In this document: positions 27,617 through 61,986 of the stretch, piece by piece
Layout of the letters: each line of letters begins with the position of its first letter
How positions within the stretch are numbered: the first letter of the stretch is position 1
DNA from: Rhodobacterales bacterium
GTDB taxonomy: Bacteria; Pseudomonadota; Alphaproteobacteria; Rhodobacterales; CAZPXZ01
NCBI GenBank assembly: GCA_965217995.1
Contig: CBDCKB010000002.1
Coordinates: forward strand, 40,385 to 104,384
Length of the DNA stretch: 64,000 nucleotides
Reading direction: 5' to 3'
Translations under genes and position numbers: made by a program
The notes under the pieces: model-generated
What the model was told of the DNA's origin: nothing
The model's input: only the letters and a program-made list of their open reading frames with translations
Databases searched by the model: none

Positions 27617-27862
27617 ACCCTCTGTAACCACTCGGTAACCTGCTGTAACCCTCTCTAACCACACGGTAAACTGCTGTAACCTGCTGTAACCTGCCGTAAC
27701 CCACTGTAACCACTCGGTAACCTGCTGTAACCTGCTGTAACCCTCTGTAACCACTCGGTAACCTGCTGTAACCCTCTCTAACCACACGGTAAACTGCTGT
27801 AACCTGCTGTAACCTGCCGTAACCCACTGTAACCACTCGGTAACCTGTTGTAACCTGCTGTA
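27617..27862. repeat. Satellite A local 123-bp (3-monomer) tandem duplication
   Basis: ccctctgtaaccactcggtaacctgctgtaaccctctctaaccacacggtaaactgctg occurs at 27617 and again at 27740. Confidence 0.85.
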
Positions 27863-30180: not shown

Positions 30181-30899
30181 ACTCGGTAACCTGCTGTAAC
30201 CCACTGTAAACACTCGGTAACCTGCTGTAGCCCACTGTAACCACTCGGTAACCTGCTGTAACCAGCTGTAACCCACTGTAACCACTCGGTAACCTGCTGT
30301 AACCCACTGTAACCACTCTGTAACTTGCTGTAACCTGCTGTAACGCACTGTAACTACTCGGTAACCTGCTGTAACCCACTCTAACCACTCGGTAACCTGA
30401 AGTAATCTTCTGTGACCCACTGTAACCACTCGGTAACCTGCTGTAACCTGCCACTGTTACCAATCGGTAACCTGCTGTAACCTGCTGTAACCCACTGTAA
30501 CCACTCGGTAACCTGCTGTGTAAGCACTCGGTAACCTGCTGTAACCCACTGTAACTTCTCGGTAACCTCTCGGTAACCTGCTGTAACCCACTGTAACAAC
30601 TCGGTAACCTACTGTAAACCTGCTGTAACCTGCTGTAACTCAATGTAATCACTCGGTAACCTGCTGTAACCTGCTGTAACCAACTGTAACCATTCGGTAA
30701 CCTGCTGTAACATTCTGTAACCCACTGTAACCACTCGGTAACCTGCTGTAACCCACTGTAACCACTCGGTAACTTGCTGTGACCTGCTATAACCCACTGC
30801 AACTACTCGGTAACCTGCTGTAAACTGCTGTAACCTGCTGTAACCCACTGTAACCACTCGATAACCTACTGTAACCCACTGTAACCACTCGGTAACCTG

Positions 30900-39800: not shown

Positions 39801-42800
39801 TGTAACCACTCGGTAACCTGCTGTAACTATCTGTAACCACTCGGTAATCTGCTGTAACCTGCTGTAACCCATTGTAACCATTCGGTAAACTGCTGTAACC
39901 TGATGTAACCCACTGTAACCACACGGAAACCTTCTGTAACCCACTGTAATCCACTGTAACCACTCGGTAACCTGCTGTAACCCACTGTAACCACTCGGTA
40001 ACCTGCTGTAACCCACTGTAACCACTCGAAAACCTGCTGTAACCTGCTGTAGCCCACTGTAACCATTAGGTAACCCACTGTAACCACTCGGTAACCTGCT
40101 GTAACCCACTGTAAACACTCTGTAACTTGCTGTAACCTGTTGTAACCCACTGTACACACGCAGTAACCTTCTGTAACCTGCTGTAACCCACTGTAACAAC
40201 TCGGTATCCTGCTGTAACCTGATATAACCCGTTGTAACCACTCGGTAACCTGCTGTAACCTGATGTAACCCACTGTAACCACTCGGTAACCTTCTGTAAC
40301 TATCTGTAACCACTCGGTAATCTGCTGTAACCTGCTGTAACCCATTGTAACCATTCGGTAAACTGCTGTAACCTGATGTAACCCACTGTAACCACACGGA
40401 AACCTTCTGTAACCCACTGTAACCCACTGTAACCACTCGGTAACCTGCTGTAACCCACTGTAACCACTCGGTAACCTGCTGTAACCCACTGTAACCACTC
40501 GGAAACCTGCTGTAACCTGCTGTAGCCCACTGTAACCATTAGGTAACCCACTGTAACCACTCGGTAACCTGCTGTAACCCACTGTAAACACTCTGTAACT
40601 TGCTGTAACCTGTTGTAACCCACTGTACACACGCAGTAACCTGCTGTAACCTGCTGTAACGCACTGTAACCTCTCGGTAACCTGCTGTAACATTCTGTAA
40701 CCCACTGTAACCTGCTGTAACCCACTGTAACCACTCGATAACCTGCAGTAACCTTCTGTAACCTACTGTAACCAATCGGTAACCTGCTGTAACCTGCTGT
40801 AACCCACTGTAACCACTCGGTGACCTGCTGTAACCTGTAAATGTAACCAATTGGTAACCTGCTGTAACCAGCTGTAACCCACTGTAACCACTCGGTAACC
40901 TGCTGTAACCTGCTGTGTAAGTACTCGGTTTCCTGCTGTAACCCACTGTAACCACTCGGAAACCTGCTGTAACCTGCTGTAGCCCACTGTAACCATTAGG
41001 TAACCCACTGTAACCACTCGGTAACCTGCTGTAACCCACTGTAAACACTCTGTAACTTCCTGTAACCTGTTGTAACCCACTGTACACACGCAGTAACCTG
41101 CTGTAACCTGCTGTAACCCACTGTAACCACTCAGTAACCTGCTGTAACCTGCTGTAACCCACTGTAACCACTCGGTAAACTGCTGTAACCTGCTGTAACC
41201 GGCTGTAACCACTCGGTAACCTGCTGCAACCTGCTGTACCCCACTGTAACAACTCGGTTACCAGCTGTAACCTGCCGTAACCCACTGTAACCACTAGTTT
41301 ACCTGCTGTAACCTGCCTTAACCTGCTGTAACCTACCGTAACCTCTCGGTAACATGCTGTAACTTGCTGTAACCCACCGTAACCACTCGGTAACATGCTG
41401 TAACCCACTGTAACCTCTCGGTAACCTACTGTATCCTTCTGTAATCCACTGTAACAACTCGGTAACCTGCTGTAACTTGCTGTAACCCACTGTAACCACT
41501 CGGTAACCTTCTGTAACCTGCTATAACCCACTGTAACAACTCGGTATCCTGCTGTAACCTGCTATAACCCGTTGTAACCACTCAGTAACCTGCTGTAACC
41601 TGATGTAACCCACTGTAACCACTCGGTAACCTTCTGTAACTATCTGTAACCACTCGGTAATCTGCTGTAACCTGCTGTAACCCATTGTAACCATTCGGTA
41701 AACTGCTGTAACCTGATGTAACCCACTGTAACCACACGGAAACCTTCTGTAACCCACTGTAACCCACTGTAACCACTCGGTAACCTGATGTAACCCACTG
41801 TAACCACTCGGTAACCTGCTGTAACCCACTGTAACCACTCGGAAACCTGCTGTAACCTGCTGTAGCCCACTGTAACCATTAGGTAACCCACTGTAACCAC
41901 TCGGTAACCTGCTGTAACCCACTGTAAATACTCTGTAACTTGCTGTAACCTGTTGTAACCCACTGTACACACGCAGTAACCTGCTGTAACCTGCTGTAAC
42001 GCACTGTAACCTCTCGGTAACCTGCTGTAACATTCTGTAACCCACTGTAACCTGCTGTAACCCACTGTAACCACTCGATAACCTGCAGTAACCTTCTGTA
42101 ACCCACTGTAACCAATCGGTAACCTGCTGTAACCTGCTGTAACCCACTGTAACCACTCGGTGAGCTGCTGTAACCTGCCACTGTAACCAATTGGTAACCT
42201 GCTGTAACCAGCTGTAACCCACTGTAACCACTCGGTAACCTGCTGTAACCTGCTGTGTAAGTACACGGATTCCTGCTGTAACCCACTGTAACCACTCGGA
42301 AACCTGCTGTAACCTGCTGTAGCCCACTGTAACCATTAGGTAACCCACTGTAACCACTCGGTAACCTGCTGTAACCCACTGTAAACACTCTGTAACTTCC
42401 TGTAACCTGTTGTAACCCACTGTACACACGCAGTAACCTGCTGTAACCTGCTGTAACGCACTGTAACCACTCGGTAACCTGCTGTAACCTTCTGTAACCC
42501 ACTGTAACCTGCTGTAACCCACTGTAACCACTCTGTAACCTGCAGTAACCTTCTGTAACCCACTGTAACCCACTGTAACCAATCGGTAACCTGCTGTAAC
42601 CTGCTGTAACACACTGTAACCACTCGGTGACCTGCTGTAACCTGCCACTGTAACCAATTGGTAACCTGCTGTAACCAGCTGTAACCCACTGTAACCACTC
42701 GGTAACCTGCTGTAACCTGCTGTGTAAGTACTCGGTATCCTCCTGTAACCCACTGTAACCTCTCGGTAACCAGCTGTAACCTGATGTAGCCCACTGTAAC

Positions 42801-43400
42801 CACTTGGTAACCTGCTGTAACCTGCTGTAACCCACTGTAACCACTCGGTGACCTATTGTAACCTGTTGTAACCCACTGTAACCACTCGGTTACCTGCTGT
42901 AACCCACTGTAACCACTCGGAAACCTGCTGTAACCTGCTGTAGCCCACTGTAACCATTAGGTAACCCACTGTAACCACTCGGTAACCTGCTGTAACCCAC
43001 TGTAAACACTCTGTAACTTGCTGTAACCTGTTGTAACCCACTGTACACACGCAGTAACCTGCTGTAACCTGCTGTAACGCACTGTAACCCCTAGGTAACA
43101 TGCTGTAACCTACTGTAACCACTCGGTAACATGCTGTAACCTGCTGTAACCCACTGTACACACGCAGTAACCTGCTGTAACCTGCTGTAACGCACTGTAA
43201 CCCCTAGGTAACCTGCTGTAACCTACTGTAACCACTCGGTAACATGCTGTAACCTGCTGTAACCCACTGTAACCCCTAGGTAACCTGCTGTAACCTACTG
43301 TAACCACTCGGTAACATGCTGTAACCTGCTGTAACCCACTGTAACCACTCGGTAACCTGCTGTAACCTGCTGCAACCCCCTGTAACCACTCGGTCACCTG
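30900..43400. repeat. Satellite A domain VI: 2661-bp HOR with additional partial or rearranged copies
   Basis: Markers ending at 31771, 31985, 32696, 33270 and 34067 recur at exactly +2661 (34432, 34646, 35234/35357 region, 35931, 36728). There is 1 codon difference in 268 codons and 1 in 330. Further copies lie at 36496-38387, 38305-41531 and 41521-43161 with different spacing (1073, 1917 and 1813 bp between homologous starts). Domain-specific variants include ctgtgtaagcactcgg, ccactgtacacacgcagtaacc, cctgccactgtaaccaattgg and ccactagtttacc. Confidence 0.88.
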
Positions 43401-44439
43401 CTGTCACCCACTGTAACCTCTCGGTAACCTACTGTATCCTTCTTTAACCCACAGTAACCACTCGGTAACCTACTGTAACTTGCTGTAACCCACTGTAACC
43501 ACACGGCAACCTGATGTAACCTGATGTAACCTGCTGTAATCCGCTGTAACCACTCGGTAACCTCCTGTAACCTGATGTAACCCACTGTAACCACTCGGTA
43601 ACCTACTGTAACCTGCTGTAACCCACTGTAACCACTAGGTAACTTGCTGTAAGTTGCTGTAACTCACTGTAACCACTCGGTAACCTGCTGTAACGTGCTG
43701 TAACCCACTGTAACCACTCGGTAACCTGCTGTAACCTGCTGTAACCCACTGTAAGCACTCGGTAACCTGCTGTAACCCACTGTAACCACTCGGTGACCGC
43801 TGTAATCTGCAGTAACCCACTGTACCCACTCGGTACCCTGCTGTAACCTACTGTAACCCACTGTACCCACTAGGTTCCCCGCTGTAACCTGTTGTAACCC
43901 ACTGTTACCACTCGGTAACCTGCTGTAACCTAATGTAACCCACTGTAACCACTCAGTAACAAGCTGTAACCTGCTGTAACCCACTGTAACCACTCGGTAA
44001 CCTGTTGTAACCTGCTGTAACCCACTGTAACCACTCGGTAACCTGCTATAACCTGCTGTAACCTGCTGTAACCCACTGTAAACACTCGGTAACGTGCTGT
44101 AACCTGCTGTAACCCACTGTAACAACTCGGTACCTGCTGTAACCTGCTCTAACCCACCACAACCACTCGTTAACCTGCAGTAACCTGCTGTAACCCACTG
44201 TAACCACTCGGTAACCTGCTGTAACCTCCTGTAACCCACTGTAACCACTTGTTAACCTGCTGTAACCTGCTGTAACCCACTGTAACCACTCGGTGACCTG
44301 CTGTAACCATGCTGTAACCCACTGTAACCATTCGGTAACCTTCTGTAACCAGCTGTAACCCACTGTAACCACTCGGTAACCTGCTGTAACCTGCTGTAAC
44401 CCACTGTAACCACTCGGTAACCTGCTGTGACCTGCTCTA

Positions 44440-47400
44440 AACCACTGTAATCACTCGGTAACCTGCTGTAACCCACTGTAACCTCTCGTTAACCTTCTCT
44501 AACCATGCTGTAACCCACTGTAACCACTCTGTAACCTGCTGTAACCTGCTGTAACCCATTGTAACCACTCGGTGACCTGCTGTAACCAGCTGTAACCCAC
44601 TGTAACCACTCGGTAACCTGCTGTAACCTGATATAACCCTCTGTAACCACTCGGTAACCTGCTGTAACCTGCTGTAATCCACTCGGTAACCTGCTGTAAC
44701 CTGCTGTAACCCACTGTAACCACTCGGTACCCTGCTGTAACCTGCTGTAATCCATTGTAACCACTCGGTAACCTGCTGTAATCCACTGTAACCACTCGGT
44801 AACCTGATGTAACCTGCTGTAACCAGCTGTAACCCTCTGTAACCACTCTGTAACTTGCTGTAACCTGATGTAACCCACTGCAACCACTCTGTAACCTGCT
44901 GTAACCTGCTGTAACCACTCGGTAACCTGCTGTAACCGGCTTTAACCCGCTGTAACCACTCGGTAACCTGCTGTAATCCACTGTAACCACTCGGTAACCT
45001 GCTGTAACCTGCTGTAACCTGCTGTAACCCACTGTAACCACTCTGTAACTTGCTGTAACCTGCTCTAACCCACTGTAACCTTCGGTAACCTGCTGTAACC
45101 TGCTGTAACCCACTGTAACCATTCGGTAACCTGCTGTAACCACTTGTTAACCTGCTGTAACCCACTGTAACCACTCGGTGACCTGCTGTAACCATGCTGT
45201 AACCCACTGTAACCATTCGGTAACCTTCTGTAACCTGCTGTAACCCACTGTAACCACTCGGTAACCTGCTGTAACCTGCTGTAACCCACTGTAACCACTC
45301 GGTAACCTGCTGTGACCTGCTCTAACCCACTGTAATCACTCGGTAACCTGCTGTAACCCACTGTAACCTCTCGTTAACCTTCTCTAACCATGCTGTAACC
45401 CACTGTAACCACTCTGTAACCTGCTGTAACCTGCTGTAACCCATTGTAACCACTCGGTAACCTGCTGTAACCAGCTGTAACCCACTGTAACCACTCGGTA
45501 ACCTGCTGTAACCTGATATAACCCTCTGTAACCACTCGGTAACCTGCTGTAACCTGCTGTAATCCACTCGGTAACCACTCGGTAACCTGCTGTAACCTGC
45601 TGTAACCCACTGTAACCACTCGGTAACCTGCTGTAACCTGCTGTAACCCATTGTAACCACTCGGTAACCTGCTGTAATCCACTGTAACCACTCGGTAACC
45701 TGATGTAACCTGCTGTAACCAGCTGTGACCCACTGTAACCACTCTGTAACTTGCTGTAACCTGATGTAACCCACTGCAACCACTCTGTAACCTGCTGTAA
45801 CCTGCTGTAACCACTCGGTAACCTGCTGTAACCGGCTTTAACCCGCTGTAACCACTCGGTAACCTGCTGTAATCCACTGTAAACACTCGGTAACCTGCTG
45901 TAACCTGCTGTAACCTGCTGTAACCTGCTGTAACCCACTGTAACCACTCTGTAACCCACTGTAACCTTCGGTAACCTGCTGTAACCTGCTGTAACCTGCT
46001 GTAACCCACTGTAACCATTCGGTAACCTGCTGTAACCTCCTGTAACCCACTGTAACCACTTGGTAACCTGCTGTAACCTGCTGTAACCCACTGTAACCAC
46101 TCGGTAACCTGCTGTAACCATGCTGTAACCCACTGTAACCATTCGGTAACCTTCTGTAACCTGCTGTAACCCACTGTAACCACTCGGTAACCTGCTGTAA
46201 CCAGCTGTAACCTGCTGTAACCCACTGTAACCACTCGGTAACCTGCTGTCATCTGCTCTAACCCACTGTAATCACTCGGTAACCTGCTGTAACCCACTGT
46301 AACCTCTCGTTAACCTTCTCTAACCATGCTGTAACCCACTGTAACCACTCTGTAACCTGCTGTAACCTGCTGTAACCCATTGTAACCACTCGGTAACCTG
46401 CTGTAACCAGCTGTAACCCACTGTAACCACTCGGTAACCTGCTGTAACCTGATATAACCCTCTGTAACCACTCGGTAACCTGCTGTAACCTGCTGTAATC
46501 CACTCGGTAACCACTCGGTAACCTGCTGTAACCTGCTGTAACCCACTGTAACCACTCGGTAACCTGCTGTAACCTGCTGTAACCCATTGTAACCACTCGG
46601 TAACCTGCTGTAATCCACTGTAACCACTCGGTAACCTGATGTAACCTGCTGTAACCAGCTGTAACCCACTGTAACCACTCTGTAACTTGCTGTAACCTGA
46701 TGTAACCCACTGCAACCACTCTGTAACCTGCTGTAACCTGCTGTAACCACTCGGTAACCTGCTGTAACCGGCTTTAACCCGCTGTAACCACTCGGTAACC
46801 TGCTGTAATCCACTGTAACCACTCGGTAACCTGCTGTAACCTGCTGTAACCTGCTGTAACCTGCTGTAACCCACTGTAACCACTCTGTAACCCACTGTAA
46901 CCTTCGGTAACCTGCTGTAATCTGCTGTAACCCACTGTAACCATTTGGTAACCTGCTGTAACCTCCTGTAACCCACTGTAACCACTTGGTAACCTGCTGT
47001 AACCTGCTGTAACCCACTGTAACCACTCGGTAACCTGCTGTAACCATGCTGTAACCCACTGTAACCATTCGGTAACCTTCTGTAACCTGCTGTAACCCAC
47101 AGTAACCACTCGGTAACCTGCTGTAAACTGCTGTAACCCACTGTAACCACTCGGTTACATGCTGTAACCTGCTGTAACCCACTGTAACCACTCGGTAACA
47201 TGTGGTAACCCACTGTAACTACTCGGTTTCCTGCTGTAACCTGATGTAACCCACTGCAACCACTCTGTAACATGCTGTAACCTGCTGTAACACACTGTAA
47301 CCACTCGGTAACCTGCAGTAACCCACTGTAACCACTCGGTACCCTGCGGTAACCTGCTGTAACCTGCTGTAACCCACTGTAACCACTCGGTAACCTGATG

Positions 47401-49590
47401 TAACCATGCTGTAACCCACTGTAACCACTCGGTAACCAGCTGTAAGCTGCTGTAACCCACTGTAACCACTCGGTAACCTGCTGTAACCGGCTCTAACCCA
47501 CTGTAATCACTCGGTAACCTGCTGTAACCCACTGTAACCTCTCGTTAACCTTCTCTAACCATGCTGTAACCCACTGTAACCACTCTGTAACCTGCTGTAA
47601 CCTGCTGTAACCCATTGTAACCACTCGGTAACCTGCTGTAACCAGCTGTAACCCACTGTAACCACTCGGTAACCTGCTGTAACCTGATATAACCCTCTGT
47701 AACCACTCGGTAACCTGCTGTAACCTGCTGTAATCCACTCGGTAACCACTCGGTAACCTGCTGTAACCTGCTGTAACCCACTGTAACCACTCGGTAACCT
47801 GCTGTAACCTGCTGTAACCCATTGTAACCACTCGGTAACCTGCTGTAATCCACTGTAACCACTCGGTAACCTGATGTAACCTGCTGTAACCAGTTGTGAC
47901 CCACTGTAACCACTCTGTAACTTGCTGTAACCTGATGTAACCCACTGCAACCACTCTGTAACCTGCTGTAACCTGCTGTAACCACTCGGTAACCTGCTGT
48001 AACCGGCTTTAACCCGCTGTAACCACTCGGTAACCTGCTGTAATCCACTGTAAACACTCGGTAACCTGCTGTAACCTGCTGTAACCTGCTGTAACCTGCT
48101 GTAACCCACTGTAACCACTCTGTAACCCACTGTAACCTTCGGTAACCTGCTGTAACCTGCTGTAACCTGCTGTAACCCACTGTAACCATTCGGTAACCTG
48201 CTGTAACCTCCTGTAACCCACTGTAACCACTTGGTAACCTGCTGTAACCTGCTGTAACCCACTGTAACCACTCGGTAACCTGCTGTAACCATGCTGTAAC
48301 CCACTGTAACCATTCGGTAACCTTCTGTAACCTGCTGTAACCCACTGTAACCACTCGGTAACCTGCTGTAACCAGCTGTAACCTGCTGTAACCCACTGTA
48401 ACCACTCGGTAACCTGCTGTCATCTGCTCTAACCCACTGTAATCACTCGGTAACCTGCTGTAACCCACTGTAACCTCTCGTTAACCTTCTCTAACCATGC
48501 TGTAACCCACTGTAACCACTCTGTAACCTGCTGTAACCTGCTGTAACCCATTGTAACCACTCGGTAACCTGCTGTAACCAGCTGTAACCCACTGTAACCA
48601 CTCGGTAACCTGCTGTAACCTGATATAACCCTCTGTAACCACTCGGTAACCTGCTGTAACCTGCTGTAATCCACTCGGTAACCACTCGGTAACCTGCTGT
48701 AACCTGCTGTAACCCACTGTAACCACTCGGTAACCTGCTGTAACCTGCTGTAACCCATTGTAACCACTCGGTAACCTGCTGTAATCCACTGTAACCACTC
48801 GGTAACCTGATGTAACCTGCTGTAACCAGCTGTAACCCACTGTAACCACTCTGTAACTTGCTGTAACCTGATGTAACCCACTGCAACCACTCTGTAACCT
48901 GCTGTAACCTGCTGTAACCACTCGGTAACCTGCTGTAACCGGCTTTAACCCGCTGTAACCACTCGGTAACCTGCTGTAATCCACTGTAACCACTCGGTAA
49001 CCTGCTGTAACCTGCTGTAACCTGCTGTAACCTGCTGTAACCCACTGTAACCACTCTGTAACCCACTGTAACCTTCGGTAACCTGCTGTAATCTGCTGTA
49101 ACCCACTGTAACCATTTGGTAACCTGCTGTAACCTCCTGTAACCCACTGTAACCACTTGGTAACCTGCTGTAACCTGCTGTAACCCACTGTAACCACTCG
49201 GTAACCTGCTGTAACCATGCTGTAACCCACTGTAACCATTCGGTAACCTTCTGTAACCTGCTGTAACCCACAGTAACCACTCGGTAACCTGCTGTAAACT
49301 GCTGTAACCCACTGTAACCACTCGGTTACATGCTGTAACCTGCTGTAACCCACTGTAACCACTCGGTAACATGTGGTAACCCACTGTAACTACTCGGTTT
49401 CCTGCTGTAACCTGATGTAACCCACTGCAACCACTCTGTAACATGCTGTAACCTGCTGTAACACACTGTAACCACTCGGTAACCTGCAGTAACCCACTGT
49501 AACCACTCGGTACCCTGCGGTAACCTGCTGTAACCTGCTGTAACCCACTGTAACCACTCGGTAACCTGATGTAACCATGCTGTAACCCAC
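44440..49590. repeat. Satellite A domain VII: 2171-bp HOR (sub-blocks 936 + 1235 bp), about 2.4 copies
   Basis: 45361 vs 47532 was checked at nucleotide level. Translations 46310..47191 vs 48481..49362 (293 codons) and 46320..47273 vs 48491..49444 (317 codons, a different frame) are identical. 45374..46297 vs 47545..48468 differ at 1 codon. The boundary motif recurs at 44485, 45370, 46306, 47541 and 48477. Confidence 0.92.
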
Positions 49591-50699
49591 TCTAACCACT
49601 CGGTAATCTGCTGTAACCTGTTGTATCCACTCGTTATCTTGCTGTAACCTGCTGTAACCCACTGTAACCACGCGGTAACCTGCTGTAACCCACTGTAACC
49701 ACTCGATAACCTGCTGTAACCTGCTGTAACCCACTGCAACCACTCCGTAAACTGCTGTAAACTGCTGTAACCTGCTGTACTCACTGTAACCACTCGGTAA
49801 CATGCTGTAACCTGCTGTAACCCCTTGTAACCACTCGATAACATGCTGTAACCCGCTGTAACCTCTCGGTGACCTGCTGTATCTTGTTGTAACCCACTGT
49901 AACCACTCGTTAACCTGCGGTAACCTGCTGTAACCCACTGTCACCACTCGGTATCCTGCTGTAACTTGCTGTAACTCACAGTGTGACCACACGGTAACCT
50001 GCTGTAACACACTGTAACCACTCGGTACCTGCTGTAACCTGCTGTAACCCACTGTAACCACTCGGTAACCTGCGGTAACCTGCTGTAACCTGCTGTAACC
50101 CACTGTAACAACTCGGTGACGTGCAGTAACCTGCAGTAACCTGCTGTAACCCACTGTAGCCAATCGGTTGCCTGCTGTAACCTGCTGTAAGCCACTGTAA
50201 CCACTCGGTAACTTGCTGTAACTTGCTGTTGCCCACTGTAACCTGCTGTAACCAGCTGTAACCCACTGTAACCACTCTGTTACCTGCGGTAACTTGCTGT
50301 AACCTGCTGTAACCCACTGTAACCACTCGGTGTCCTGTAGCAACCTGCAGTAAACTGCTGTAACCCACTGTAACCAATCGGTTACCTGCTGTAACTCACT
50401 GTAACCACTCGGTAACTTGCTGAACTTGCTGTTGCCCACTGTAACCTGCTGTAACCCACTGTAACCTGCTGTAACCTACTGTAACCCACTGTAACCAATC
50501 GGTAACCTGCTGTAACCTCCTGTAACCCACTGTTCCCACTTGGTAACCTTCTGTAACCTACTGTAACCCACTGTAACCACTCAATAACCTGCTGTAACCT
50601 GCTGTAACCCATTGTAATCACTCGGTAACCTGCTGTAACCTGTAACCCACTGTAACCACTCGGTAACCTGCTGTAACCCATTGTAACCACTCGGTAACC
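49590..50699. repeat. Satellite A distal edge: same monomer family, no HOR, more degenerate monomers
   Basis: HOR identity with the previous copy stops near 49590. Aberrant monomers include ctcacagtgtgaccacacggtaacc (about 49975-50000), ggtgtcctgtagcaacctgcagtaaactg (about 50328-50356) and cttgctgaacttgctgttgccc (about 50417-50437). Confidence 0.55.
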
Positions 50700-50753
50700 A
50701 CGCAGAGAAACGCTAAAATAGTGGTTATTGAGCAACCATAAACACAAAAATGG
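50700..50753 (+). repeat. Isolated fragment (about 0.6 unit) of satellite C between satellite A and junction J1
   Basis: acgcagagaaacgctaaaatagtggttattgagcaaccataaacacaaaaatg matches the C sub-variant at about 60170-60224, 61226-61284 and 61447-61506 (gagtggttattgagcaaccat.ggcacaaaa.tg). Confidence 0.8.
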
Positions 50754-50824
50754 GTTGTTACTTCGTGTAAGAGTCACGAAATATGCTTAGTCAGCTTAGA
50801 TATGCAACTAATTGGCCTAATGGT
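50754..50824 (+). other. Junction element J, copy 1 (71 bp, non-satellite leader from which the B array starts)
   Basis: The sequence is gttgttacttcgtgtaagagtcacgaaatatgcttagtcagcttagatatgcaactaattggcctaatggt. It is 63/71 identical to 61916-61986. Its 3-prime end (ggcctaatggt) already resembles a B unit. Confidence 0.85.
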
Positions 50825-53800
50825 GTGTGAGGGGGCCTACACGTGTCTGAGGGTGCTTAATGGTATCTACTAGTGTCTGAGGGTGCCTACTGGTGCCTGA
50901 GGGTGCCTAGTGGTGTCTGTGGGTGGCTATGGGTATCTGTGGGTGACAACGGATGTCTGAGGGTGCCTACTGGTGACTGTAGGTGCCTAAGGGTATCTGA
51001 GGGTGCCTACTGGTGTCTGTGGGTGCCTACTCGTGTCTGAGAGTACCTACCGGTACCTACTACTGTCTGAGAGTGCCTACTGGTGTCTGAGGGTGCCTAC
51101 TTGTGCCTAAGGGAGCCTACTGGTGTCTGTGGGTGCCTAACGGTGTCTGTGGGTGTGGACAGGTGTGTGAGAATGCCTACTCGTGTCTGTGGGCACCTAC
51201 GGGTGTCTGAGGGTGCCTACTGGGATCTGTGGGTGCCTACTGGTGTCTGAGGGTGCCTATGGGTATCTGTGGGTGCTTATTTGTGCTTGTGGGTGCCTAC
51301 TGGTGTCTGACAGTACCTACTGGTATCTCAGTGTGCCTACTGGTGTCTGTGCGTGCCCACTGGTGTCTGAGTGTACCTACTGGTATCTGTGAGTGCCTAC
51401 TGGTGTGTAAGAGTGCCTATTGGTGCCTAAGGGTGACTACTGGTGTCTGTGGGAGCTCACGGGTGTCTGTGGGTGCCTACTGGTGCCTGAGGGTGCCTAC
51501 TAGTGTTTCAGGGTGCCTACGGTTGTCTGAGGGTACCTACTGGTGTCTGAGGGCGCCTATGGGTGTCTGTGTATGCCAACTAGGGACTGTGGGTGCCTCC
51601 TGGTGTCTGAGGGTGCCTACCGGTGTCTGAGTGTGCCTAATGGTGTCTGAGGGTACCTAATAGTGTGTTAGGGTACCTACATGTGTCTGAGGGTGCCCAC
51701 TGGTGTTTGAGGGTGCCTTCTAGTGTCTGAGAATGCCTACTTGTGCCTGAGGGTGCCTACTGGTGTCTGAGGGTGCCTACTGGTGTCTGAGGGTGTCTAC
51801 GGGTGTCTGTGGGTACCTACTGGTGTCTGAGGGTGCTTACTGATGTCTGAGGGTGCCTACGGGTGTCTGAGGGTGCCTAGTGTTGTCTGAGGGTTCCCAC
51901 TGGTGTATGAGTGTGCCTAATGGTGTCTGAGGGAACGTAATGGTGTCTTAGGGCTCCTACATGTGTTTGATGGTGCCCACTGGTGTCTGAGGGTGCCTTC
52001 TGGTGTCTGAGGATGACTACTGGTATCTGTGGGCGCCTACTGGTGCCTGAGGGTACCTACTGGTGCCTTCTGGTATCTGAGGGTGCCTACTGGTATCTGA
52101 TGGTCCCTATTTGTGCCTGAGGGAGCCAATGGATGTCAGTTGGTACCTACTGGTGACTGTAGGTGCCTGCTGGCGTCTGAGGGTGCCTACTGGGGTCTGT
52201 TGGTACCTAATGGTGGTGCACACAGGTGTCTGAGAGTTCCTATTGGTATCTGAGGATGCCTACTTGTGCCTAAGGGTGCCTACTGGTGCCTTCTGGTGTC
52301 TGAAGTCGCCTACTGGCATCTGTGGGTGTCTACTGGTATCTGAGGGTGCCTACTGGTGTCTGAGCGTGCCTACTGGTGTTTTAGGATGCCTACTGGTGCC
52401 TGTAGGTGCCTACTGGTATCTGAGGGTGCCTATGGGTGTCTGTGGAAGCCTACTGGTGTCTGAGAATGGCCAATGGTGGTACACATAGTTGTCTGAGAAT
52501 GCCCATTGGTATCTGAGGAAACCTACTGGTGCCTAAGGGTGCCTACTGGTGCCTTCTGGAATCTGAAGGCGCCTACTGGCATCTGTGGATGCCTACTGGT
52601 GCCTGGGGTGCCTACTGATGTCTGAGCGTGCCTACTGGTGTCTGAAGGGGCCTACTGGTATCTGTGGGTGCTTACTGTTGCTTAAGGGTGTCTACTGGTG
52701 TCTACTGGTATCTGAGGTTTCCTACTGGTGTCTGAGAATGCCTAGTGGTATCTGTGGTTGCCTACTGGTATCTAAAGGTGCCTATTGGTTCTAACTGTGC
52801 CTACACGTGTCTGAGAGTTCCTATTGGTTCTAACTGTGCCTACTGGTCTCTGAGGGTGCCTACAGGTGCCTGAGGCTACCTACTACTGTCTGAGGGTTCC
52901 TACTGGTGTTCGAGTGTGGATACTGGTGTCTGAGTGTGCCTACTGGTTTCTACTGCTGTGTGAGGGAGCCTACTGGAGTCTGTGGGTGCCTACTTGTGCC
53001 TGAGGGTAACTACTGTTGTCTGACGGTACCTACTGGAGTCTGAGGGTGTCTAATGGTGTGTGAAGGTGTCTGAGGGTTCCTACTGGTGCCTGAGATTGCC
53101 CACTGGTAACTTCCGGTGACTGAGGGTGCCTACTGGTGTCTGTGGTTAGCTACTGGTGCCTGATGGTGCCTACTTGTGTCTGTGGGTGCCTACTGGTGTC
53201 TGAGGGTTCCTACTGGTATCTGAGGATGTCTACTGGCATCTGTGCGTGCGCACTTGTGTCTAAGGATGCCTCATGGTGTCTGAGGGTTCCTATTGGTGTC
53301 TGAGAGGGCCTGTGGGTGCCTACTATTTTCGGAAGCTGTCTACAGCAGACTGAGCAGGCCTGCTGGTGTCTGTGGGTAGCTACTGTTGTCTGAGGGTGCT
53401 TACTGGTGTCTGAGGATGCCTACAGGTGCCTGAGGGTGCCTACTGGTGCCTTCTGCTGTCTGAGGATGCCTACTGGTGCCTGAGGGTGCCTAATGGAGTC
53501 TCAGGGGGCCTACTGGTGTCTGTGGATGCGTACTTGTGACTGAGGTTGCCTCATGGCGTCTGAGTGTTCCTGCTGTTGTTTGAGAGGGCCTATAGGTGCC
53601 TACTAGTGTCTGAAGGTACCTGCGGATGTCTGTGAGTACCTGCTGTTGTCTGTGGGGATCTACTGGTGTCTGAGGGTACCTACTGGTAACCGTGGGTGCC
53701 TGCTGGTGTATGTGGGTACCTACTGGTGTCTGAGGGTAACTAATGGTGTCTGCGGGTATCTGAAGTTTCATACTGGTGTCTGAAGGTGCCTACTGTTGCC

Positions 53801-54550
53801 TTCTAGTGTCTGAGGGTGCCTACTTGTATCTGTGGGTGCCTACTTGTGCCTGACGGTTCATACTGGCGTCTGAGGGTGCCTACTGGTGCCTGTGAGTGCG
53901 TACTTGTGTCTGAGAATGCCTCATTGTGTCTGAGTGTACCTACTGGTATCTGAGAGGGCCTATGGGTGCCTACTAGTATCTGAACGTACCACAGGTGTCT
54001 GTGAGTACCTGCTGTTTTCTGTGGATGCCTACTGGTCTCTGAGGATGCCTACAGGTACATTACGGTGCCTACTGCGGTCTGAGGAGATCTACGGGTATCT
54101 GTGAGAACCTACAGGTATCTAAGAGGACCTATTCGTTTCTGAGGATTCCTACTGGTACCTGAGGGTGCCTACTGGTGCCTTCTCGTATCTAAGGGTGTGT
54201 CTATGGGTGCCAACTGATGCCTGAGAGTGCCAACTGGTATCTGAGAGTGCCTAATGGTATCTAACTGTGCCTACAGGTCTCTGAGAGTGCCTATTGGTAT
54301 CTGAGGGTGCCTACTGGCTTCTGAGGACACCTACTGGTGCCTTAGGGTGCCTACTGTTGTCTCAGAGTGTGTACTGGTCTCTGAGTGTGGCTACTGGTGT
54401 GTGAGGGTGCCCACTGGTATCTGAGGATGCTTACCGGTGGCCTTCTGGTTTCTGAGGGAGCCTACTGGTGTCTGTGGATCCCTACTGGTACCTTAGGGTG
54501 CCTACTGGTGTCTGAGGATGCCTACTGGTGCCTTCTTGTGTCTGAGGGTG
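50815..54550 (+). repeat. Satellite B, forward arm: 20-bp monomer TGGTGTCTGAGGGTGCCTAC
   Basis: Perfect units occur e.g. at 51751-51800. The unit is two related 10-mers (GGTGTCTGAG / GGTGCCTACT). Local HORs of about 261 bp (52213 vs 52474) and 280-370 bp (markers at 53247, 53527, 53897) are present. Confidence 0.95.
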
Positions 54551-56230
54551 GCACCAGTAGGCAACCTCAGACAACAGTAGGCACCCTCTGAAAGCAGTAG
54601 GCACCATCAGACACCAGAAGTCACCAGTATGCACCCTTAGAGAACAGTAGGCACCCTCAGGGACCAGTAGGCACCCACAGATATCTGTAGACACTGTCAG
54701 ACAATAGAAGGCACCAGTAAGCATCCTCAGGCAACAGTAGGCATTCTCAGACACCAGTAGGCACCGTCAGACACCAATAGACATTCTCAGACAACAGTAG
54801 GTACCCTCAGATACTAGTAGGTACCCACAGGCCCCACTAGGCAACCACAGACACCAGTAGGTACCCTCAGATACCAATAGGTACAAGTAGGGGAACTCAG
54901 ACACCAGTACGCACCCACAGATACCGGTAGGCACTCACAGGCAACAGTACGCCCTCTCAGATACCAGTAGGCACTCTCAGACACCCAAACGAACTCTCAG
55001 ACAGCAGTAAGCGCCCACAGGCACCGGTGGGCACCCTCAGATACCAGTAGGTAACTACAGACATCAGTAGGCATCCTCAGATACCACTAGGTACCCTCAG
55101 ATACCAGTAGGCACCTGTAGGCACGTTCAGACACCCATAGGCACCCACAGACACCAGTAGGTACCCTCAGATACTAGTAAGTTCACTAAGACACCAGAAG
55201 GCACCAGTATGCACGCTCAGACAACGGTAGGCACCCTCAGGCACCAGTAGGTACCCACAGACACCAGTAGGCATACTCAGATACCAGTAGGTACCCTCAG
55301 ACACTAGGAGGTACCAGTATATACCATCCAACAACAGGAGGCACCCTCAGATACCGGTAGGCACGCACACATACCTGTAGGCATCCTCAGACACCAGAAG
55401 GCACCAGTAGGCACCCTCAGGCAACCGTAGGCATCCTCAGACACCAGTAGGTACCCTCAGACACCAGTAGGTACCCTAAGAGACATGTAGGCCATCTAAG
55501 ACACCATTAGGTACCCTCAGACACTAGTAGGCATTCTCAGACACCAATATGCACCCACAGATACCAGTAGGCAGTCACAGACACCAGTAGTCATCCTCAG
55601 ACACCAGTAGGCACCAGTAGGTGTGCTCAGATACCAGTACGCACCCACAGACACCAGTAGTCATCCACAGGAACCAGTACGCACTCTCAGATACCAGTAG
55701 GCACCCACAGATACCAGTAGGCACACTCAGACACCAGTAGGCACACTCAGACACCAGGAGGTACCAGTATACACCCATAGACACCAGTAGGCACACTCAG
55801 ACACCGGTAGGCACCCAAAGATACCAGCAATTACCTACAGACACCAGTAGGCACCCTCAGATACCAGTAGGCACCCTCAGATACCAGTAGGCACCCACAG
55901 ACTCCAGCATGTCTCCTCAGACACCAGTAGGTATTCTCAGATACCAATAGGCATCAATAGACCCCTCAGACACCAGTAGGCTCCCTTAGACACCAGCACG
56001 CACCCTCAGATACAGTTAAGCAACCACAGTAACCACCAGGCACCCACACATATCAGTAGCCAACCACAGACACCAGTAGGCAAACTCAGTCACCAGAAGG
56101 CAGCCTCAGACACAAGTAGGCACCCTCAGACACCAGTAGACTCCCTCAGACACCAGTAGGTTACCAGAGACACCAGTAGGTACCCACAGATACCAGTAGG
56201 AACCCTCAGACACCAGTAGGCATCCACAGA

Positions 56231-57070
56231 CACCAGTACGCACCCTCAGACTCCAGCAGACACCCTGAGACACCAGTAGGTACACTCAGACACCCATAGG
56301 TTCCCTCACACACTAGTAGGCACGATCAGATATCAGTTGACACACTCAGACACCGGTAGGTACCCACAGATACCAGCAGGTACCCACAGACACCAGTAGC
56401 CAACCAGACATAACAGAAGGCAACCTCAGGCTCCAGTAGGCACCCTGAGAAACCAGTAGGCACCCTCAGACGCCAGTAGGCAATCTCAGTCACCAGTAGG
56501 CACACTCAGACACCTGAAGGCACCCTCAGACACCAGTAGCCACTCACCGACACTCATAGGTTCCTTCAGAGACCAGTAGACACCCTTAGACAGCAGTAGC
56601 CACCAACCGACACCCATAAGTACCATCAGACACCAGCAGGAATCCACAGATACCAGTACGCACACTCAGACTCCAGTAGACACCCTCAGACGCCAGTAGG
56701 TACTCTCAGATACCTATGGGTACCCTCACACACTAGTAGGTACGCTCAGATACCAGTTGGCACCCTCATACACCGGTAGATTCCCACAGACACTGGCAGG
56801 CACCCTCAGACATCAGTAGCCATCCAGAGATACCAGAAGGCAACCTCAGGTTCCAGTAGGCACCCTGAGAAACCAATAGTCACCCTCAGAAGCCAGTAGG
56901 CAGTCTCAGTCACCAGTAGGCACACACAGGCACCTGAAGGCACCCTCAGACACCAGTAGCCATCCACCTACACCCATAGGTACCCGCAGAGAACAGTAGG
57001 CACCTTTAGACACCAGTAGCCATCCACCGACACCCATAGGTACCCTCAGACTCCAGCAGGAATTCACAGA
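56231..57070 (-). repeat. Satellite B local 420-bp HOR (21 units), 2 tandem copies; diverged third copy near 57761
   Basis: caccagtacgcaccctcagactccagcaga at 56231 matches taccagtacgcacactcagactccagtaga at 56651. The ends align too (56591 vs 57011). Confidence 0.85.
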
Positions 57071-58040
57071 CACCAGTAGGCACCCTGAGATACCAGTAGG
57101 TACCGTCAGGCACCAGTAGGTACGCACAGACACCTGTACGCTCCCTCAGACACCAATAGGCACCCTCAGATACCAGTAGATATAGACACACACAAGTACG
57201 GACCCTCAGACACCAGTAGGTATCCTCAGACACCAGTAGGCACCCACAAAAACTTGTAGGCACCCTTAGACACCAGTAGCCATCCACCGACAACCATAGG
57301 TACCCTCAGACACCAGTAGGTACCCTTAGACACCAGTAGCCACCCACCGACACCCGTAGGTATCCTCAGATACCAGTAGATTCCCACAGACTCCAGTACG
57401 CACACTCAGATACCAGTAGGCATCATCAGATACCAGTAGATACCAGAAGGCAACCTCAGACACCAGTAGGCACCCTGAGACACCAGTATGCTCCTTCAGA
57501 GGCCATTAGACACTCTCAGTCACAAGTAGGTACCCACAGACATTAGTAGGTGCCCTCAGACACCAGTAAGCACCCACAGACACCAGTAGGCAACCTCAGG
57601 TACCAGTAGGCACCCTCAAACACCAGTAGGCATCCACAGTTACCAGTACGCACCCTCAGAGACCAATAAGTACCATTAGACACCAGTAGGCACCCTTAGA
57701 TACCCATAGGAACCCTCATACACCAGTAAGTATACTCTGACACCAGTAGGCATCCACAGACACCAGTACGCACCCTCAGACTCTAGTACATACCCTCAGA
57801 CATCAGTAGGTACACTCAGACACCAATAGGCCCCCTCACACACCAGTAGGTACCCTCAGACACCAGTTGGCACTCTCAGATACCGGTAGGCACTCACAGA
57901 CACTAGCAGGCACCCACAGACACCAGTAGCCATCCACAGATACCAGAAGACAACCTCAGGCACCGGTAGGCACACTGAGATACCAGAAGTCACCCTGAGA
58001 TCCCAGTAGTCACCCTCAGTCACCAGCGGGCACACTCAGA

Positions 58041-59100
58041 CACCTGAAGGCACCCTAAGACACCAAAAAGTACACTCAGGCACTAGTAGGCACCAACAGA
58101 CATAAGTAGACACCCTCAGATACCAGTGGGCCCCCTTAGATACCAGTAGGAACCCTCAAACACCCTTAGGAACCTACAAGCACCAGTTGGTACCTTTAGA
58201 CACCAGTACGCACCCTTAGATACCTCCAGACACCATTAGGAACACTCAGACACCAGTACGCACTAGTAGGCACACTCCTGCACCAGTAGTCACCCTCAGA
58301 CAAACATAGGCACCCTATCACACCAGTAGGCACCCTCAGACACCATTTAGCACCCTCAGATACCAGTAGTCATCCACAGACACCAGTGGGCAACCTCAGT
58401 CACCAGTAGGCACCAACAGACACCAGTAGGCATACTAAGATACCAGTAGGCATCCACAGATACCAGCAGGCACCCACAGACACCAGTAGCCACCCACAGA
58501 CACCAGTAGGCAACCTCAGTCACCAGTAGGCACCAACAGACACCAGTAGGCACACTAAGATACCAGTAGGCATCCACAGAGACCAGTAGGCGCCTACAGA
58601 CACCAGTAGTCACCCTCAGACACCTGAAGGCACACTAAGACACCAAAAGGCACACTCAGGCAACAGTACGCACCAACAGATATAAATAGGCACCTTCAGA
58701 CACCAGTAGGCCCCCTTAGATACCAGTAGGAACCCTCAAACACTCTTACGAACACTCAGACACCAGTAGGAACTAGTAGGCACCCTCCTGCACCAGTAGT
58801 CACCCTCAGACACACATAGGCACCCTTACTCACCAGTAGGCACCCTCAGACACCATTTAGTACCCTCAGACACCAGTAGGAACCCACAGAAACCAGCAGG
58901 CACCCACAGACACCAGTAGACATCCACAGACACCAGTAGGCAACCTCAGTTACCAGTAGGCAACCTCAGTCACCAGTAGGCACCATCAGACACCAGTAGG
59001 CACCCTAAGATACCAGTAGGCACCCACAGAAACCAGTAAGCTCCTACAGACACCAGCAGGATTCCACAGTCACCAGTGGGCACCCTGAGATACCAGTAGG
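58041..59100 (-). repeat. Satellite B local 0.51-0.58 kb HOR, 2 copies, containing a 120-bp (6-unit) internal duplication at 58381-58620
   Basis: cacctgaagg caccctaaga caccaaaaag at 58041 matches 58621 (offset 580). After a 60-70-bp indel the offset becomes 510 (58271 vs 58781). 58381-58500 vs 58501-58620 are near identical. Confidence 0.8.
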
Positions 59101-59322
59101 TACCGTCAGACACCAGTAGGCAGGCACAGACACCTGTACGCTCCCTCAGACACTAATAGGCACCCTCAGATACCAGTAGGCATCCTCAGACACCAGTAGG
59201 CACTCAGACACCAGTAGGTACCCTCAGACACCAGTAGGCACCCTCAGGCTCCAGTAGGCCCCCACAGATACTAGTACTCACCGTAGGACAACACTAGGCG
59301 CCAGTAGGCACCCTCAGACACA

Positions 59323-61745
59323 AACGCAGACAAAAGCTAAAGGAGTGCTTATAGAGCTACTAAAAGCGAACAAACATGTACAATCAGCGAAAGGGTGTCC
59401 AATAAGCTGGAAAACGCAGACAAACACTTAAGCAGTACTTATTGTGCAATGAATAGTACAACAATGTTCTCAACCAGACAAAGTCGGGCAAAAATCAAGC
59501 AAAAATACAGACAAACGCTAAAAGAGTGTTTACTGAGCAACCAAGAGCACAAAAAACATGCACACCAGCTAAGGGTTGGTCAACAAACAGTTGCTTAGTG
59601 AGCAACCTTAAATCACCAAAACATTCCCAACTAACAAAACTGTGGTCAACAAACAAGCAAAGACGAAGAGAAATGCTAAAGGAGTGCTTATTGAGCAACT
59701 AAAAGCGCAAAAACATTCGCAACCAGATAAAGGGTGTACAACAAACTTGCAAAAACGTACAGAAACGCTAAAGGAGTGCTTACAAACCACCTGCATAAGG
59801 ATGGTCAACAAACAAGTAAAAGTCGGAGAAATGCTAACGGATAGCTCATTGAACAACCTATTGCGAAGAAACATGCTCAACCTGTCAAAGGATGGCCAAT
59901 AAACAAGTAAAGGCAAGAGAAACGCTAAAGGTTTGCTTAGTGAGCCATAACGCAGAGAAATGCGAAAGGAGTGATTATTGAGCAACAATATGCACACAAA
60001 TGTGCTCAACCAGCCAAAGGCAGATTAATGAACTAGCAAAAATATAGACGAACGCTAAAGGAGCTGTTATTGAGCAGCCAAAAGTACAAAAACATTCACA
60101 CCTGCTAAAGGATGGTCAACAAGAAAGCAAAAGTGTAGAGAAACGCTAAAGGAATGCTTACTGAGCAAAAACGCAGGGAAACGGTGAAAGGAGTGGTTAT
60201 TGAGCAACCATGGGCACAAAAGTGTGCTCAACCAGCCAAAGGCAGGTCAATAAACAAGCATAAATGTAAACAAATGTAAATGACGACTTATTGAGGAACC
60301 AAGAGTAGAAAATGCCCTGCACCAGCTAAAGGATTGCCAATAAAAAGCAAAAATGCACAGAAATGCTACAGGAGTGCTTGTAAACAAACAACCAGCATGA
60401 GGATGGCCAATAAACAAACAAAAACGCAGTAAAACGCTAAAGGAGTGGTTATTGAGCAAACAATAGCACAAAAACATGCTCTCCTGCTAAGGGATGGTCA
60501 ACAAACAGGCAAAAATACGGAGAAATACTAAAGGGGTGCTTATTGTGCGAAAAAACATCTACAACCAGCCAAAGTCAGCCAAAGCACTAAAAAATACAAA
60601 ACAAGCAAAACGACGGCCAATAAACAAGCAAAAACGCTGACAAAACCTAAATGAGTGCTTATAGAGCTACCAAATGCGAACAAACATGTACAAACAGCGA
60701 AAGAGTATCCAATAAGCTGGAAATCGCAGACAAACACTAAAGCGGTACTTATTGTGCAATGAATAATACAACAATGTTCTCAACCAGACAAAGGGTGTAC
60801 AACAAACTTGCAAAAACGTACAGAAACGCTAAAGGAATGCTTACACAACCAGCTTAAGGATGGTCAACAAATAAGCAAAAGTCGGAGAAACGCTAACGGA
60901 TAGCTCATTGAACAACAAAATGCGAAGAAACATGCTCAACCTGGCAAAGGATGGCCAATAAGCAAGCAAAAGCGAGAGAAAGGCTAAATGTTTGCTTATC
61001 GAGCAAAAATGTAGAGAAACGCGAAAGGAGTGATTATTGAGCAACAGTATGGGCAAAAATGTTCTCAACCAGCCAAAGGCAGGTCGATAAACAAGCAAAA
61101 ATATAGACGAACTATAAAGGAGCGCTTATTGAGCAGCCAAACGTACAAAAACATTCACACCAGCTAAAGGATGGTCAACAAGAAAGCAAAAGTGCAGAGA
61201 AACGCTAAAGGATTGCTTACTGAGCAAAAACGTAGGAAATGCTAAAAGGAGTGGTTATTGAGCAACCATAGGCACAAAAATGTGTTCAACCAGCCAAAGG
61301 CAGGTCGATAAACAAGCAAAAATAAAGACGAACGCTAAAGGAGCGCTTATTGAGCAGCCAAACGTACAAAAACATGCACACCAGCTAAACTATGGTCAAC
61401 AAGAAAGCAAAAGTGCAGAGAAACGCTAAATGATTGCTTACTGAGCAAAAATGCAGGGAAATGCTAAAAGGAGTGGTTATTGAGCAACCATAGGCACAAA
61501 AATGTGTTCAACCAGCCAAAGGCAGGTCAATCAAGAAGCATAAATGTATACAAATGCAAATGAGGACTTATTGAGGAACCAAGAGCAGAAAATGCGCTGC
61601 ACCAGCTAAAGGATTGCCAATAAAAAGCAAAAATGCACGGAAATGCTACAGGAGTGCTTGTAAACAACCAGCAAGAGGATGGCCAATAAACAAACAAAAA
61701 CGCAGTGAAACGCCAAAGGATTGCTTATTGTGTTGCTAAAAGTGC
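59323..61745 (+). repeat. Satellite C: A-rich ~90-bp monomer, two HOR copies of about 1.1-1.3 kb
   Basis: The approximate unit is GCAAAAACGCAGAGAAACGCTAAAGGAGTGCTTATTGAGCAACCAAAAGCACAAAAACATGCTCAACCAGCTAAAGGATGGTCAACAAACAA. The gctaaagga-type motif is spaced about 90 bp, with some 37-66 bp short units. HOR evidence: 59341 matches 60651 (offset 1310), 59722 matches 60793 (offset 1071) and 60241 matches 61521 (offset 1280). Confidence 0.9.
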
Positions 61746-61915
61746 AAGTGCTCTAGGAGCGTTCGTTTAGCGTTTGTGTTGGTTTTTGCTAGTATAATGG
61801 CCATCCTTCAGCTGGTTGAGCTCATTTTCGCACTTGGTTGCTCAATAAGCCCTCTTTTTCATTTGTCTTTAATTTTCTTTTACATTGACCTGCCTTGGGA
61901 TGGTTACATTCTTGA
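61746..61915 (-). repeat. Inverted segment (about 1.8 units) of satellite C immediately upstream of J2
   Basis: ttggttgctcaataagc is the reverse complement of gcttattgagcaaccaa. ccatccttcagctggttgagc is the reverse complement of gctcaaccagctgaaggatgg. attgacctgcctt is the reverse complement of aaggcaggtcaat. Confidence 0.85.
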
Positions 61916-61986
61916 GTTGTTACTTCATGTAAGAGTCACGAAATATGCTGAGTCGGCTAAGACAAGCAACTATTTGGCCAAATGGT
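61916..61986 (+). other. Junction element J, copy 2
   Basis: The sequence is gttgttacttcatgtaagagtcacgaaatatgctgagtcggctaagacaagcaactatttggccaaatggt. It is 63/71 identical to J1, in the same orientation, and is again followed directly by forward satellite B. Confidence 0.85.

Follow-up and report, generated by a model that had tools for sequence, protein, structure and literature searches.

A non-repetitive leader of satellite B arrays as the probable terminus of a foldback-type DNA transposon, in host satellite DNA binned with a bacterial genome

Satellite arrays of the window and their source

The window analysed here comprises 64,000 nucleotides of contig C2 (C2:40385-104384) and is made up of the satellites A, B and C and of two copies of a short non-repetitive sequence, J. 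Satellite A, with a 41-bp unit composed of 10/11-bp sub-repeats, occupies positions 1..50699 on the forward strand (TRF and blastn satellite annotation) and forms the context to the left of the element described below; the right end of the module in paralogous host loci is formed by an inverted A array. It is followed at 50700..50752 by a forward 53-bp fragment of satellite C, which is 83-88% identical to the C units at 61453-61508 and 61230-61286 and which, based on C-unit identity and on the reconstruction of an empty site, is regarded as the left flank of an old insertion. The last 8 bp of this fragment (50745-50752, forward strand) read CAAAAATG and represent the left copy of a putative target-site duplication. 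J1, delimited by blastn and by the alignment of its copies, extends over 50753..50824 on the forward strand; it starts with GGTTGTTACTTC... and passes into a B half-unit, GCCTAATGGT, over its last 10 nt. We interpret J1 as the outermost non-repetitive domain of a foldback inverted arm, and the forward B array with its 20-bp unit at 50815..54551 as the expanded arm joined to it. An inverted B array lies head-to-head with this forward arm at 54552..59319 on the reverse strand (both arrays according to TRF and annotation), and its outer head abuts forward C without any J. The two arms are not mirror images of each other, and an artefactual foldback read was therefore rejected as the origin of the B(+)/B(-) junction.

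The right part of the window consists of forward satellite C at 59320..61742 (TRF), with units of ~91 bp organised in a 221-bp higher-order repeat and including, at 61452-61673, an uninterrupted paralogue of the insertion site. At 61743..61914 the polarity of C is reversed, and this inverted stretch is considered the other flank of the old insertion (C alignment and empty-site reconstruction). Its last 8 bp (61907-61914) read CATTCTTG, the reverse complement of which is CAAGAATG, and represent the second copy of the putative duplication. J2 follows at 61915..61986 on the forward strand (blastn, copy alignment), in direct and not inverted orientation relative to J1, and is interpreted as the terminal domain at the other end of that old element. 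The forward B array joined to it (61977..64000, forward strand; TRF and annotation) reaches the contig end; in the paralogous locus L011 the corresponding array measures ~5.5 kb and ends at inverted satellite A.

The assembly from which the window was taken is recorded as bacterial and contains five contigs (2.55 Mb in total), one of which, of 2.37 Mb and 64% G+C, is the chromosome. The remaining four (C1, C2, C3 and C5; 13-107 kb each, ~184 kb together, 39-49% G+C) consist wholly of tandem repeats, with units of 102, 194, 72, 41, 20 and ~91 bp. The satellites of these four contigs are eukaryotic host DNA that has been binned with the bacterial chromosome; those of the window are also found on Mb-scale contigs with eukaryotic features, which identifies the window as host DNA. 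A public “bacterial genome” record is thus contaminated by host satellite DNA in four of its five contigs. The host contigs were reached by searching protein collections with a B-array ORF and, in a second step, a synthetic cyclic B peptide: spurious ORFs called on their B arrays provided the handle to ENA assembly ERZ25071859, a HiFi-type metagenome, from which contigs were fetched and the loci L011-L018 and L020 obtained. Satellite-bearing contigs of this assembly also carry a hAT dimerisation domain, a DDE_3 transposase, a Dicty_CAR-type receptor and DCAF17; within the host loci, hAT and Tc1/mariner-type transposase fragments and a DCAF17-like ORF are present. This sample of loci is biased towards B, through which it was found, and could miss any J without B.

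In the ENA assembly, B arrays had been translated into predicted proteins by a gene caller with a TGA=Trp code (L011:10001-10498, L015:10001-10534 and L015:633-1229), and satellite arrays thereby fill the protein database with spurious ORFs. Searches by other routes returned little. The invariant 22-mer of J had no exact match in public genome or metagenome contig collections; an exact scan with a B 21-mer gave none in genome contigs and two single chance matches in metagenome contigs; the C-J-B stretch had no BLAST match in 60 relatives of the bacterium; and in a protein search with the J2 ORF the sole match was the window's own predicted protein. Finally, about two units of the 72-bp satellite found at the head of C2 and C5 occur alone in euchromatic DNA (L013:15103-15263), so this satellite may be dispersed as short copies too.

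The J leader and its copies in host loci

The sequence-only reading of the window had proposed that a conserved leader precedes both forward B arrays. Its alignment was reproduced: J1 (50754-50824) and J2 (61916-61986) are identical at 63 of 71 positions, in the same orientation, with a blastn E value of 5.5e-16. The alignment of 11 copies places the terminus of the element one base further out, at G 50753 and A 61915. The interval 50700-50824 under which the observation had been listed is in part satellite, with the C fragment at 50700-50752 and J1 in the remainder. Forward satellite B directly follows both J1 and J2, as had been described, and has the same polarity behind all 11 J copies. 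Satellite C does precede both leaders, but J1 comes after 53 bp of forward C and J2 after ~170 bp of inverted C, so that the left flanks are not the same sequence. Along the diagonal of the J1/J2 comparison, identity leaps from ~30% to 88% exactly at the start of J, and the similarity specific to this pair fades to the generic B level ~100 bp further on, that is, after J and roughly 1.5 B units. Position by position, the B array following J1 is not orthologous to the one following J2.

The non-satellite character attributed to J was borne out, as no significant similarity to the A, B, C, 72-bp, C1 or C3 satellites was detected apart from the B-like last 10 nt. An origin of J as a derivative of any of the A, B, C, 72-bp or C1/C3 satellites was rejected on Smith-Waterman scores compared with those of shuffled sequences and, for B, on an in-phase comparison. 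As a structured element J is not notable either (DNA fold z -1.1). It had also been suggested that the inner end of J grades into the B unit, from which B would have been seeded. The gradation holds for the last 10 nt (GCCTAATGGT), which in the J consensus match the B consensus at 9 of 10 positions and are identical to a common B variant; the other ~61 nt are not significantly similar to B, with no B match in consensus positions 1-31 and 32-59. The seeding of B from J found no statistical support, either against shuffles or in phase (11/40, p 0.38).

The reverse derivation, in which J would represent old B monomers decayed at the array edge, where homogenisation is weakest, and conserved by common descent, could draw on the same B half-unit and on the conservation of the first 1-2 B units after J, but not of deeper ones, between J1 and J2. 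It is nevertheless extremely improbable: outside these 10 nt J is not significantly like B (local alignment against shuffles, and in phase), the sharp outer boundary of J coincides with the target-site duplications, and no graded monomers intermediate between B and J occur in ~190 kb of host loci.

When the 71-mer was compared by BLAST with the whole 2.55-Mb assembly, as the sequence-only reading had recommended, J1 and J2 were the only copies. This confinement to a single contig within the bacterial assembly is what would be expected if J were unique DNA trapped at one C/B boundary and copied with it by plain segmental duplication, with no mobility of its own. In the host loci, nine further copies were identified by blastn: two in L014, two in L017 and one each in L011, L012, L013 (diverged), L015 and L016. 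In all 11 copies homology begins abruptly at G(G/A)TTGTTACTTC, and in 11/11 the ~62 non-B nucleotides of J are followed by 20-bp B units. Four of the loci (L011, L014, L015 and L016) share extended flanks and the module layout with the window, and segmental duplication accounts for their copies. As the sole explanation it is contradicted, and we consider it very improbable: the left flanks of J1 and J2 differ, their B flanks are not orthologous, and J-B also occurs at three unrelated sites of unique DNA, at one of which J ends are inverted and enclosed by a perfect 8-bp duplication. J is therefore not confined to one set of extended flanks, but is found in four independent and unrelated contexts, namely satellite C and the unique DNA of L012, of L013 and of L017. 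The flanks of L012 and L013 have no similarity to each other or to those of the other loci. Within satellite C, the flank is forward C for window J1 and L014a and inverted C for window J2, L014b, L011, L015 and L016; judged from the alignments, these look like the two sides of one site.

The euchromatic copies of J are 97% identical to each other (L012 vs L017) and 88-96% identical to the heterochromatic ones, and they occupy the middle of the identity matrix, where a family consensus would be expected to fall. J1 and J2 are 88-89% identical to each other, each being 92-93% identical to the euchromatic near-consensus copies, and the two J ends of L017 are ~94-97% identical. Similarity among euchromatic copies extends beyond J and B: L012 and L017 share a 175-bp internal segment at 84%, and the first 24 nt of the L017 inner domain are matched by L013 at 23/24 positions. 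In L012, a short inverted B piece is found 330 bp past the forward array without a J(-), indicating a truncated copy. A G+C-rich tandem repeat of ~69 bp (GCCGCCGAGTCTCTCC...GGCTCG) begins exactly at the end of this piece (L012:10553-10820). In L013, a 2.9-kb hAT element (10203-13127) with termini TAGGGCTGTGCGATT and TAGGCCTGCGCGATT is nested in the B arm; it has a perfect 8-bp target-site duplication, GTCTCAGG, and an ORF with a Dimer_Tnp_hAT domain on its minus strand. This hAT element inside the B arm is secondary.

Apart from one site rebuilt from rearranged ends, a single copy was recovered that is structurally complete, having its two ends and a target-site duplication. It lies at 9896-12986 of L017, beside a receptor-like gene on a 592-kb contig. 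It measures ~3.1 kb including a nested MITE, and has the order J(+), B(+), non-coding middle, B(-), J(-). J(+) at 9904-9962, which has lost 10 bp, is followed by forward B in two parts (9953-10108 and 10470-11545) separated by the 361-bp MITE (10109-10469), then by the unique middle (11546-12242), inverted B (12243-12924) and J(-) at 12917-12985. The left arm of J and B, interrupted by the MITE, thus has ~1.3 kb and the right arm ~0.75 kb of the 3.1 kb, and the arms are ~95% identical over their outer 220 bp. The flanks, CATTCTAC/GGT...AACC/CATTCTAC, form a perfect 8-bp duplication with a chance probability of ~1.5e-5; in a wider view the ends read ...TTACATTCTAC/GGT... and ...AACAACC/CATTCTACAGT.... 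The middle domain contains no ORF longer than 105 aa and no Pfam match, and neither an autonomous copy nor a transposase was found among the host loci examined. A search for an empty allele of the site through the neighbouring GPCR-like gene returned only the filled contig. The nested 361-bp element has inverted ends that match at ~20/27 positions (CACCGCAAAAATTGAAGGGTTG...) and a TA duplication, which suggests a non-autonomous element of the Tc1/mariner type.

The sequence-only reading had offered foldback elements as one class of mobile element that could carry B arrays along with a leader, and it is this class that the copies support, through the J-B units in unrelated unique DNA of L012, L013 and L017 and through the complete copy, whose two J ends are inverted and whose 8-bp duplication is perfect. 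The Helitron/MITE-like alternatives named beside it were not supported, given the target-site duplication and the inverted ends. Helitrons have asymmetric ends and create no target-site duplication. An alternative would make J the end of a rolling-circle (Helitron/Helentron-type) or other non-TIR element with internal tandem repeats, like the satellite-bearing elements of oyster and Drosophila. It has some appeal in the short B arrays dispersed behind a fixed leader in euchromatin (L012, L013), which superficially resemble Helentron-borne arrays (PMC7492417). The complete L017 copy, in which the leader stands at the two ends in inverted orientation and is enclosed by an 8-bp duplication, and the terminus of J (GGTTG...), which is neither a 5'-TC nor a 3'-CTRR end, leave this idea with hardly any probability. 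We therefore favour, with a probability of about 85%, the interpretation that J is the domain that terminates each long inverted arm of a non-autonomous foldback-type DNA transposon, with B as its subterminal 20-bp repeat; the mobility of this element is what we infer from the structure of its copies.

Probable insertion into satellite C, module copies and rearrangements

The 8-mers that flank J1 and J2 match at 7/8 positions within the window, and the one beside J2 reads CATTTTTG in the paralogues L014 (L014b) and L011, in agreement with the left copy CAAAAATG at 8/8 positions. Joining the J1 flank, a single 8-mer and the reverse complement of the J2 flank gave a reconstructed empty site of 217 bp, which is collinear across the join with forward C 61452-61673, with one 4-bp gap; this uninterrupted stretch is a paralogue of the insertion site and not an allele. 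Identity to the reference paralogue is ~87% on one side vs ~73% on the other. Because the empty C site reconstructs collinearly with a shared 8-mer, J1 and J2 look like the ends of one insertion. The duplication is 8 bp long both in L017 and at the reconstructed C site (n=2).

Two independent insertions, at the same position of two C repeats and in opposite orientations through a target-site preference, would be in line with the identity of only 89% between J1 and J2, vs ~94-97% for the ends of L017, with their present direct orientation and with the unequal C identities. We regard them as unlikely, since, in the 221-bp higher-order register of C, the flanks of J1 and J2 line up collinearly and have an 8-mer in common, and since the other three sites have no evident common target motif (CATTCTAC, ATTTTCTC) that would point to a strict site preference. 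A single insertion remains our preferred reading of the C site.

In the heterochromatic loci the insertion belongs to a module with the order A(+), C fragment, J, B(+), B(-), C(+), C(-), J, B(+) ... A(-), in which the A-C-J-B composite has been copied as a unit of ~20 kb. The window, L011, L014, L015/L020 and L016 are paralogous copies of this one rearranged module, and the segmental duplication of a C-J-B composite, which had been put forward as the other possible origin, was in this respect correctly anticipated. Both proposed origins, mobile element and segmental duplication, are thus true, at different scales. The B arms of the window measure 4-9 kb, and the 600 bp of B next to J1 share 94% identity between the window and L014.

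B arrays also have heads without J: at 59319 in the window, on B(-), at L012:10552, at L018:535, at the A/B junctions of contig ctg32790 and at the B(-)/C(+) junctions; in L015/L016 a J-less B block of 0.4-0.8 kb lies inside C. These heads have to be explained as truncations or rearrangements. The sequence-only reading would have been refuted if B arrays elsewhere commonly lacked J; heads of this kind exist, at truncated or rearranged junctions, and a sample of loci selected through B does not cleanly exclude that they are common. A common B phase at J-less heads was considered and dismissed, the junctions being ambiguous by several nucleotides owing to microhomology. In L018, a direct repeat of 532 bp (1-532 and 6665-7196) is 97.6% identical; its first copy stops exactly where a J-less B array of 958 bp starts, and the second continues into other sequence.

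The B(-)/C(+) junction differs among paralogues (window 59319/59320, L014:15632, rc(L020):16080, L011 ~10221-10239) and falls at three different points of the C unit, the one of L014 lying in a stretch common to B(-) and C (ACACCAG), which hints at microhomology-mediated joining. In ctg32790 (rc(L020):5540-5720, L015:17740-17800), a paralogue without a J1-type end, the left A(+)/B(+) junction mirrors the right B(-)/A(-) junction (…AACCTGTTGCAACCT/GCCAACTGGTGTCTG…), which places the whole module inside a large inverted duplication. A simple palindrome, in which the region from A through the element to C would have been duplicated in inverted form, was rejected, as the mirrored position in forward C (61452-61673) is the uninterrupted site. 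According to our model, the direct orientation of J1 and J2 would require at least one later inversion. The history of the locus is clearly more complex than a single inversion, given that the B(-)/C(+) junction varies among paralogues and that ctg32790 has mirror-image A/B junctions and no J1 end.

Proposed mechanism and comparison with known elements

Under the foldback interpretation, a transposase supplied in trans would recognise the termini formed by J, and perhaps secondary sites within the B units as well, excise the element and integrate it at an 8-bp staggered break. One old insertion of this kind into a satellite-C repeat, at the target CAAAAATG, would have left J1 and J2 as its two ends, and the B arms would then have expanded to multi-kb arrays, presumably via unequal exchange or slippage. 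Both ends may have come into the same orientation through one or more inversions between B arrays of opposite polarity. A candidate event is recombination of the right B(-) arm of the element with a neighbouring B(+) array, which would invert the segment comprising J2, its C flank and the C array, and would give the present order with no new junction. Elements of the Galileo and FB types produce inversions, and chimeric copies whose flanks do not match, in this way. The whole A-C-J-B composite would then have been copied several times as the ~20-kb module. The transposition mechanism, the superfamily of the transposase, the succession of the rearrangements and the way in which the arms expanded are in this sense parts of a model. 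Seen this way, one insertion and recombination between inverted arms may explain the layout of the window, with its head-to-head B arrays, its switch in C polarity and its two co-oriented leaders, and a foldback transposon would have supplied the repeat unit of a multi-kb satellite, with a non-repetitive terminus of 72 bp as the sole surviving marker of this origin.

A more far-reaching version, in which a still-active foldback family founded the host satellite B and its opposed arms are the main engine of inversions and palindromes in a large, possibly centromeric, A/C domain, seems unlikely to us. The near-consensus state of the euchromatic copies (97% for L012 vs L017) allows recent activity, though nothing here shows it. 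In the most unusual form of this version, B units may carry transposase sites and J-less B blocks may be mobilised as alternative ends, which would make satellite B partly self-propagating.

With regard to known systems, the copies display the features of the foldback class: long inverted arms that form most of the element, arms of tandem repeats behind a non-repeated outer domain, a target-site duplication (n=2 sites) and dispersal in four unrelated flanks. A duplication of 8 bp is typical of hAT elements, and 8 bp is the length at both sites; the termini are another matter, as the L013 hAT copy, the only one compared, ends in TAGGGCTGTGCGATT, which is unrelated to GGTTGTTACTTC. Membership of the Helitrons/Helentrons (5'-TC, 3' hairpin and CTRR, A^T, no duplication) was rejected in view of the identical, inverted ends and the 8-bp duplication. 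In the Pacific oyster, short tandem arrays dispersed in euchromatin on non-autonomous Helentron/HINE elements are reported to be linked to the origin of satellites (PMC7492417). Such elements are of the rolling-circle type, with asymmetric ends and no duplication, unlike the inverted identical ends and the 8-bp duplication reported here.

Galileo, of the P superfamily in Drosophila buzzatii/mojavensis, has 7-bp duplications and a THAP/P-type transposase, and the internal tandem repeats of its arms expand and contract independently, with ectopic recombination leading to inversions and to chimeric copies with non-matching flanks (PMC3573991). The long foldback-like arms are alike, and so is the type of inversion that would be needed to set J1 and J2 in direct orientation. 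Membership of the Galileo/P superfamily was rejected, the duplication being 8 bp at both sites here vs 7 bp. In the Drosophila FB elements, the arm repeats measure 10, 20 and 31 bp. FB and Tm1 of Meloidogyne are foldback elements of the Mutator/Phantom type, defined by a Phantom/MULE transposase; in Tm1 a short motif on the outside precedes 13-15 bp tandem repeats in varying number, and the duplications measure 8-10 bp, most commonly 9 bp (PMC3169594). Composite inverted arms, variable arm length and the frequency of non-autonomous copies are common to Tm1/FB and the present element. The commonest duplication differs (9 bp vs 8 bp at both sites here, n=2, which is within the Tm1/Tetris range), and these families have a Phantom/MULE transposase, whereas no coding copy is present among the loci studied here.

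The closest known case, by description, is Tetris, a foldback transposon of Drosophila virilis (Dias et al. 2014, PMC4079207), to which both the architecture and the satellite outcome are alike. Tetris consists of an outer flanking domain, tandem repeats, an inner domain and a variable non-coding middle, with 8-10 bp duplications, few structurally complete copies and no transposase found, and its arm repeats have been amplified into heterochromatic satellite arrays that end abruptly against another satellite (PMC4079207). The two differ in host and in dimensions: the repeats of Tetris have 220 bp and its flanking domain up to 866 bp, vs a 20-bp repeat and a flanking domain of ~62-72 bp here, and the Tetris flanking domain shares 37 bp with the repeat, whereas J shares 10 nt with B. 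The element is a new family of a known kind, and foldback arms as a source of satellites are already known; for the biology of transposons and satellites, the present example, which comes from a eukaryotic host other than Drosophila, confirms rather than surprises.
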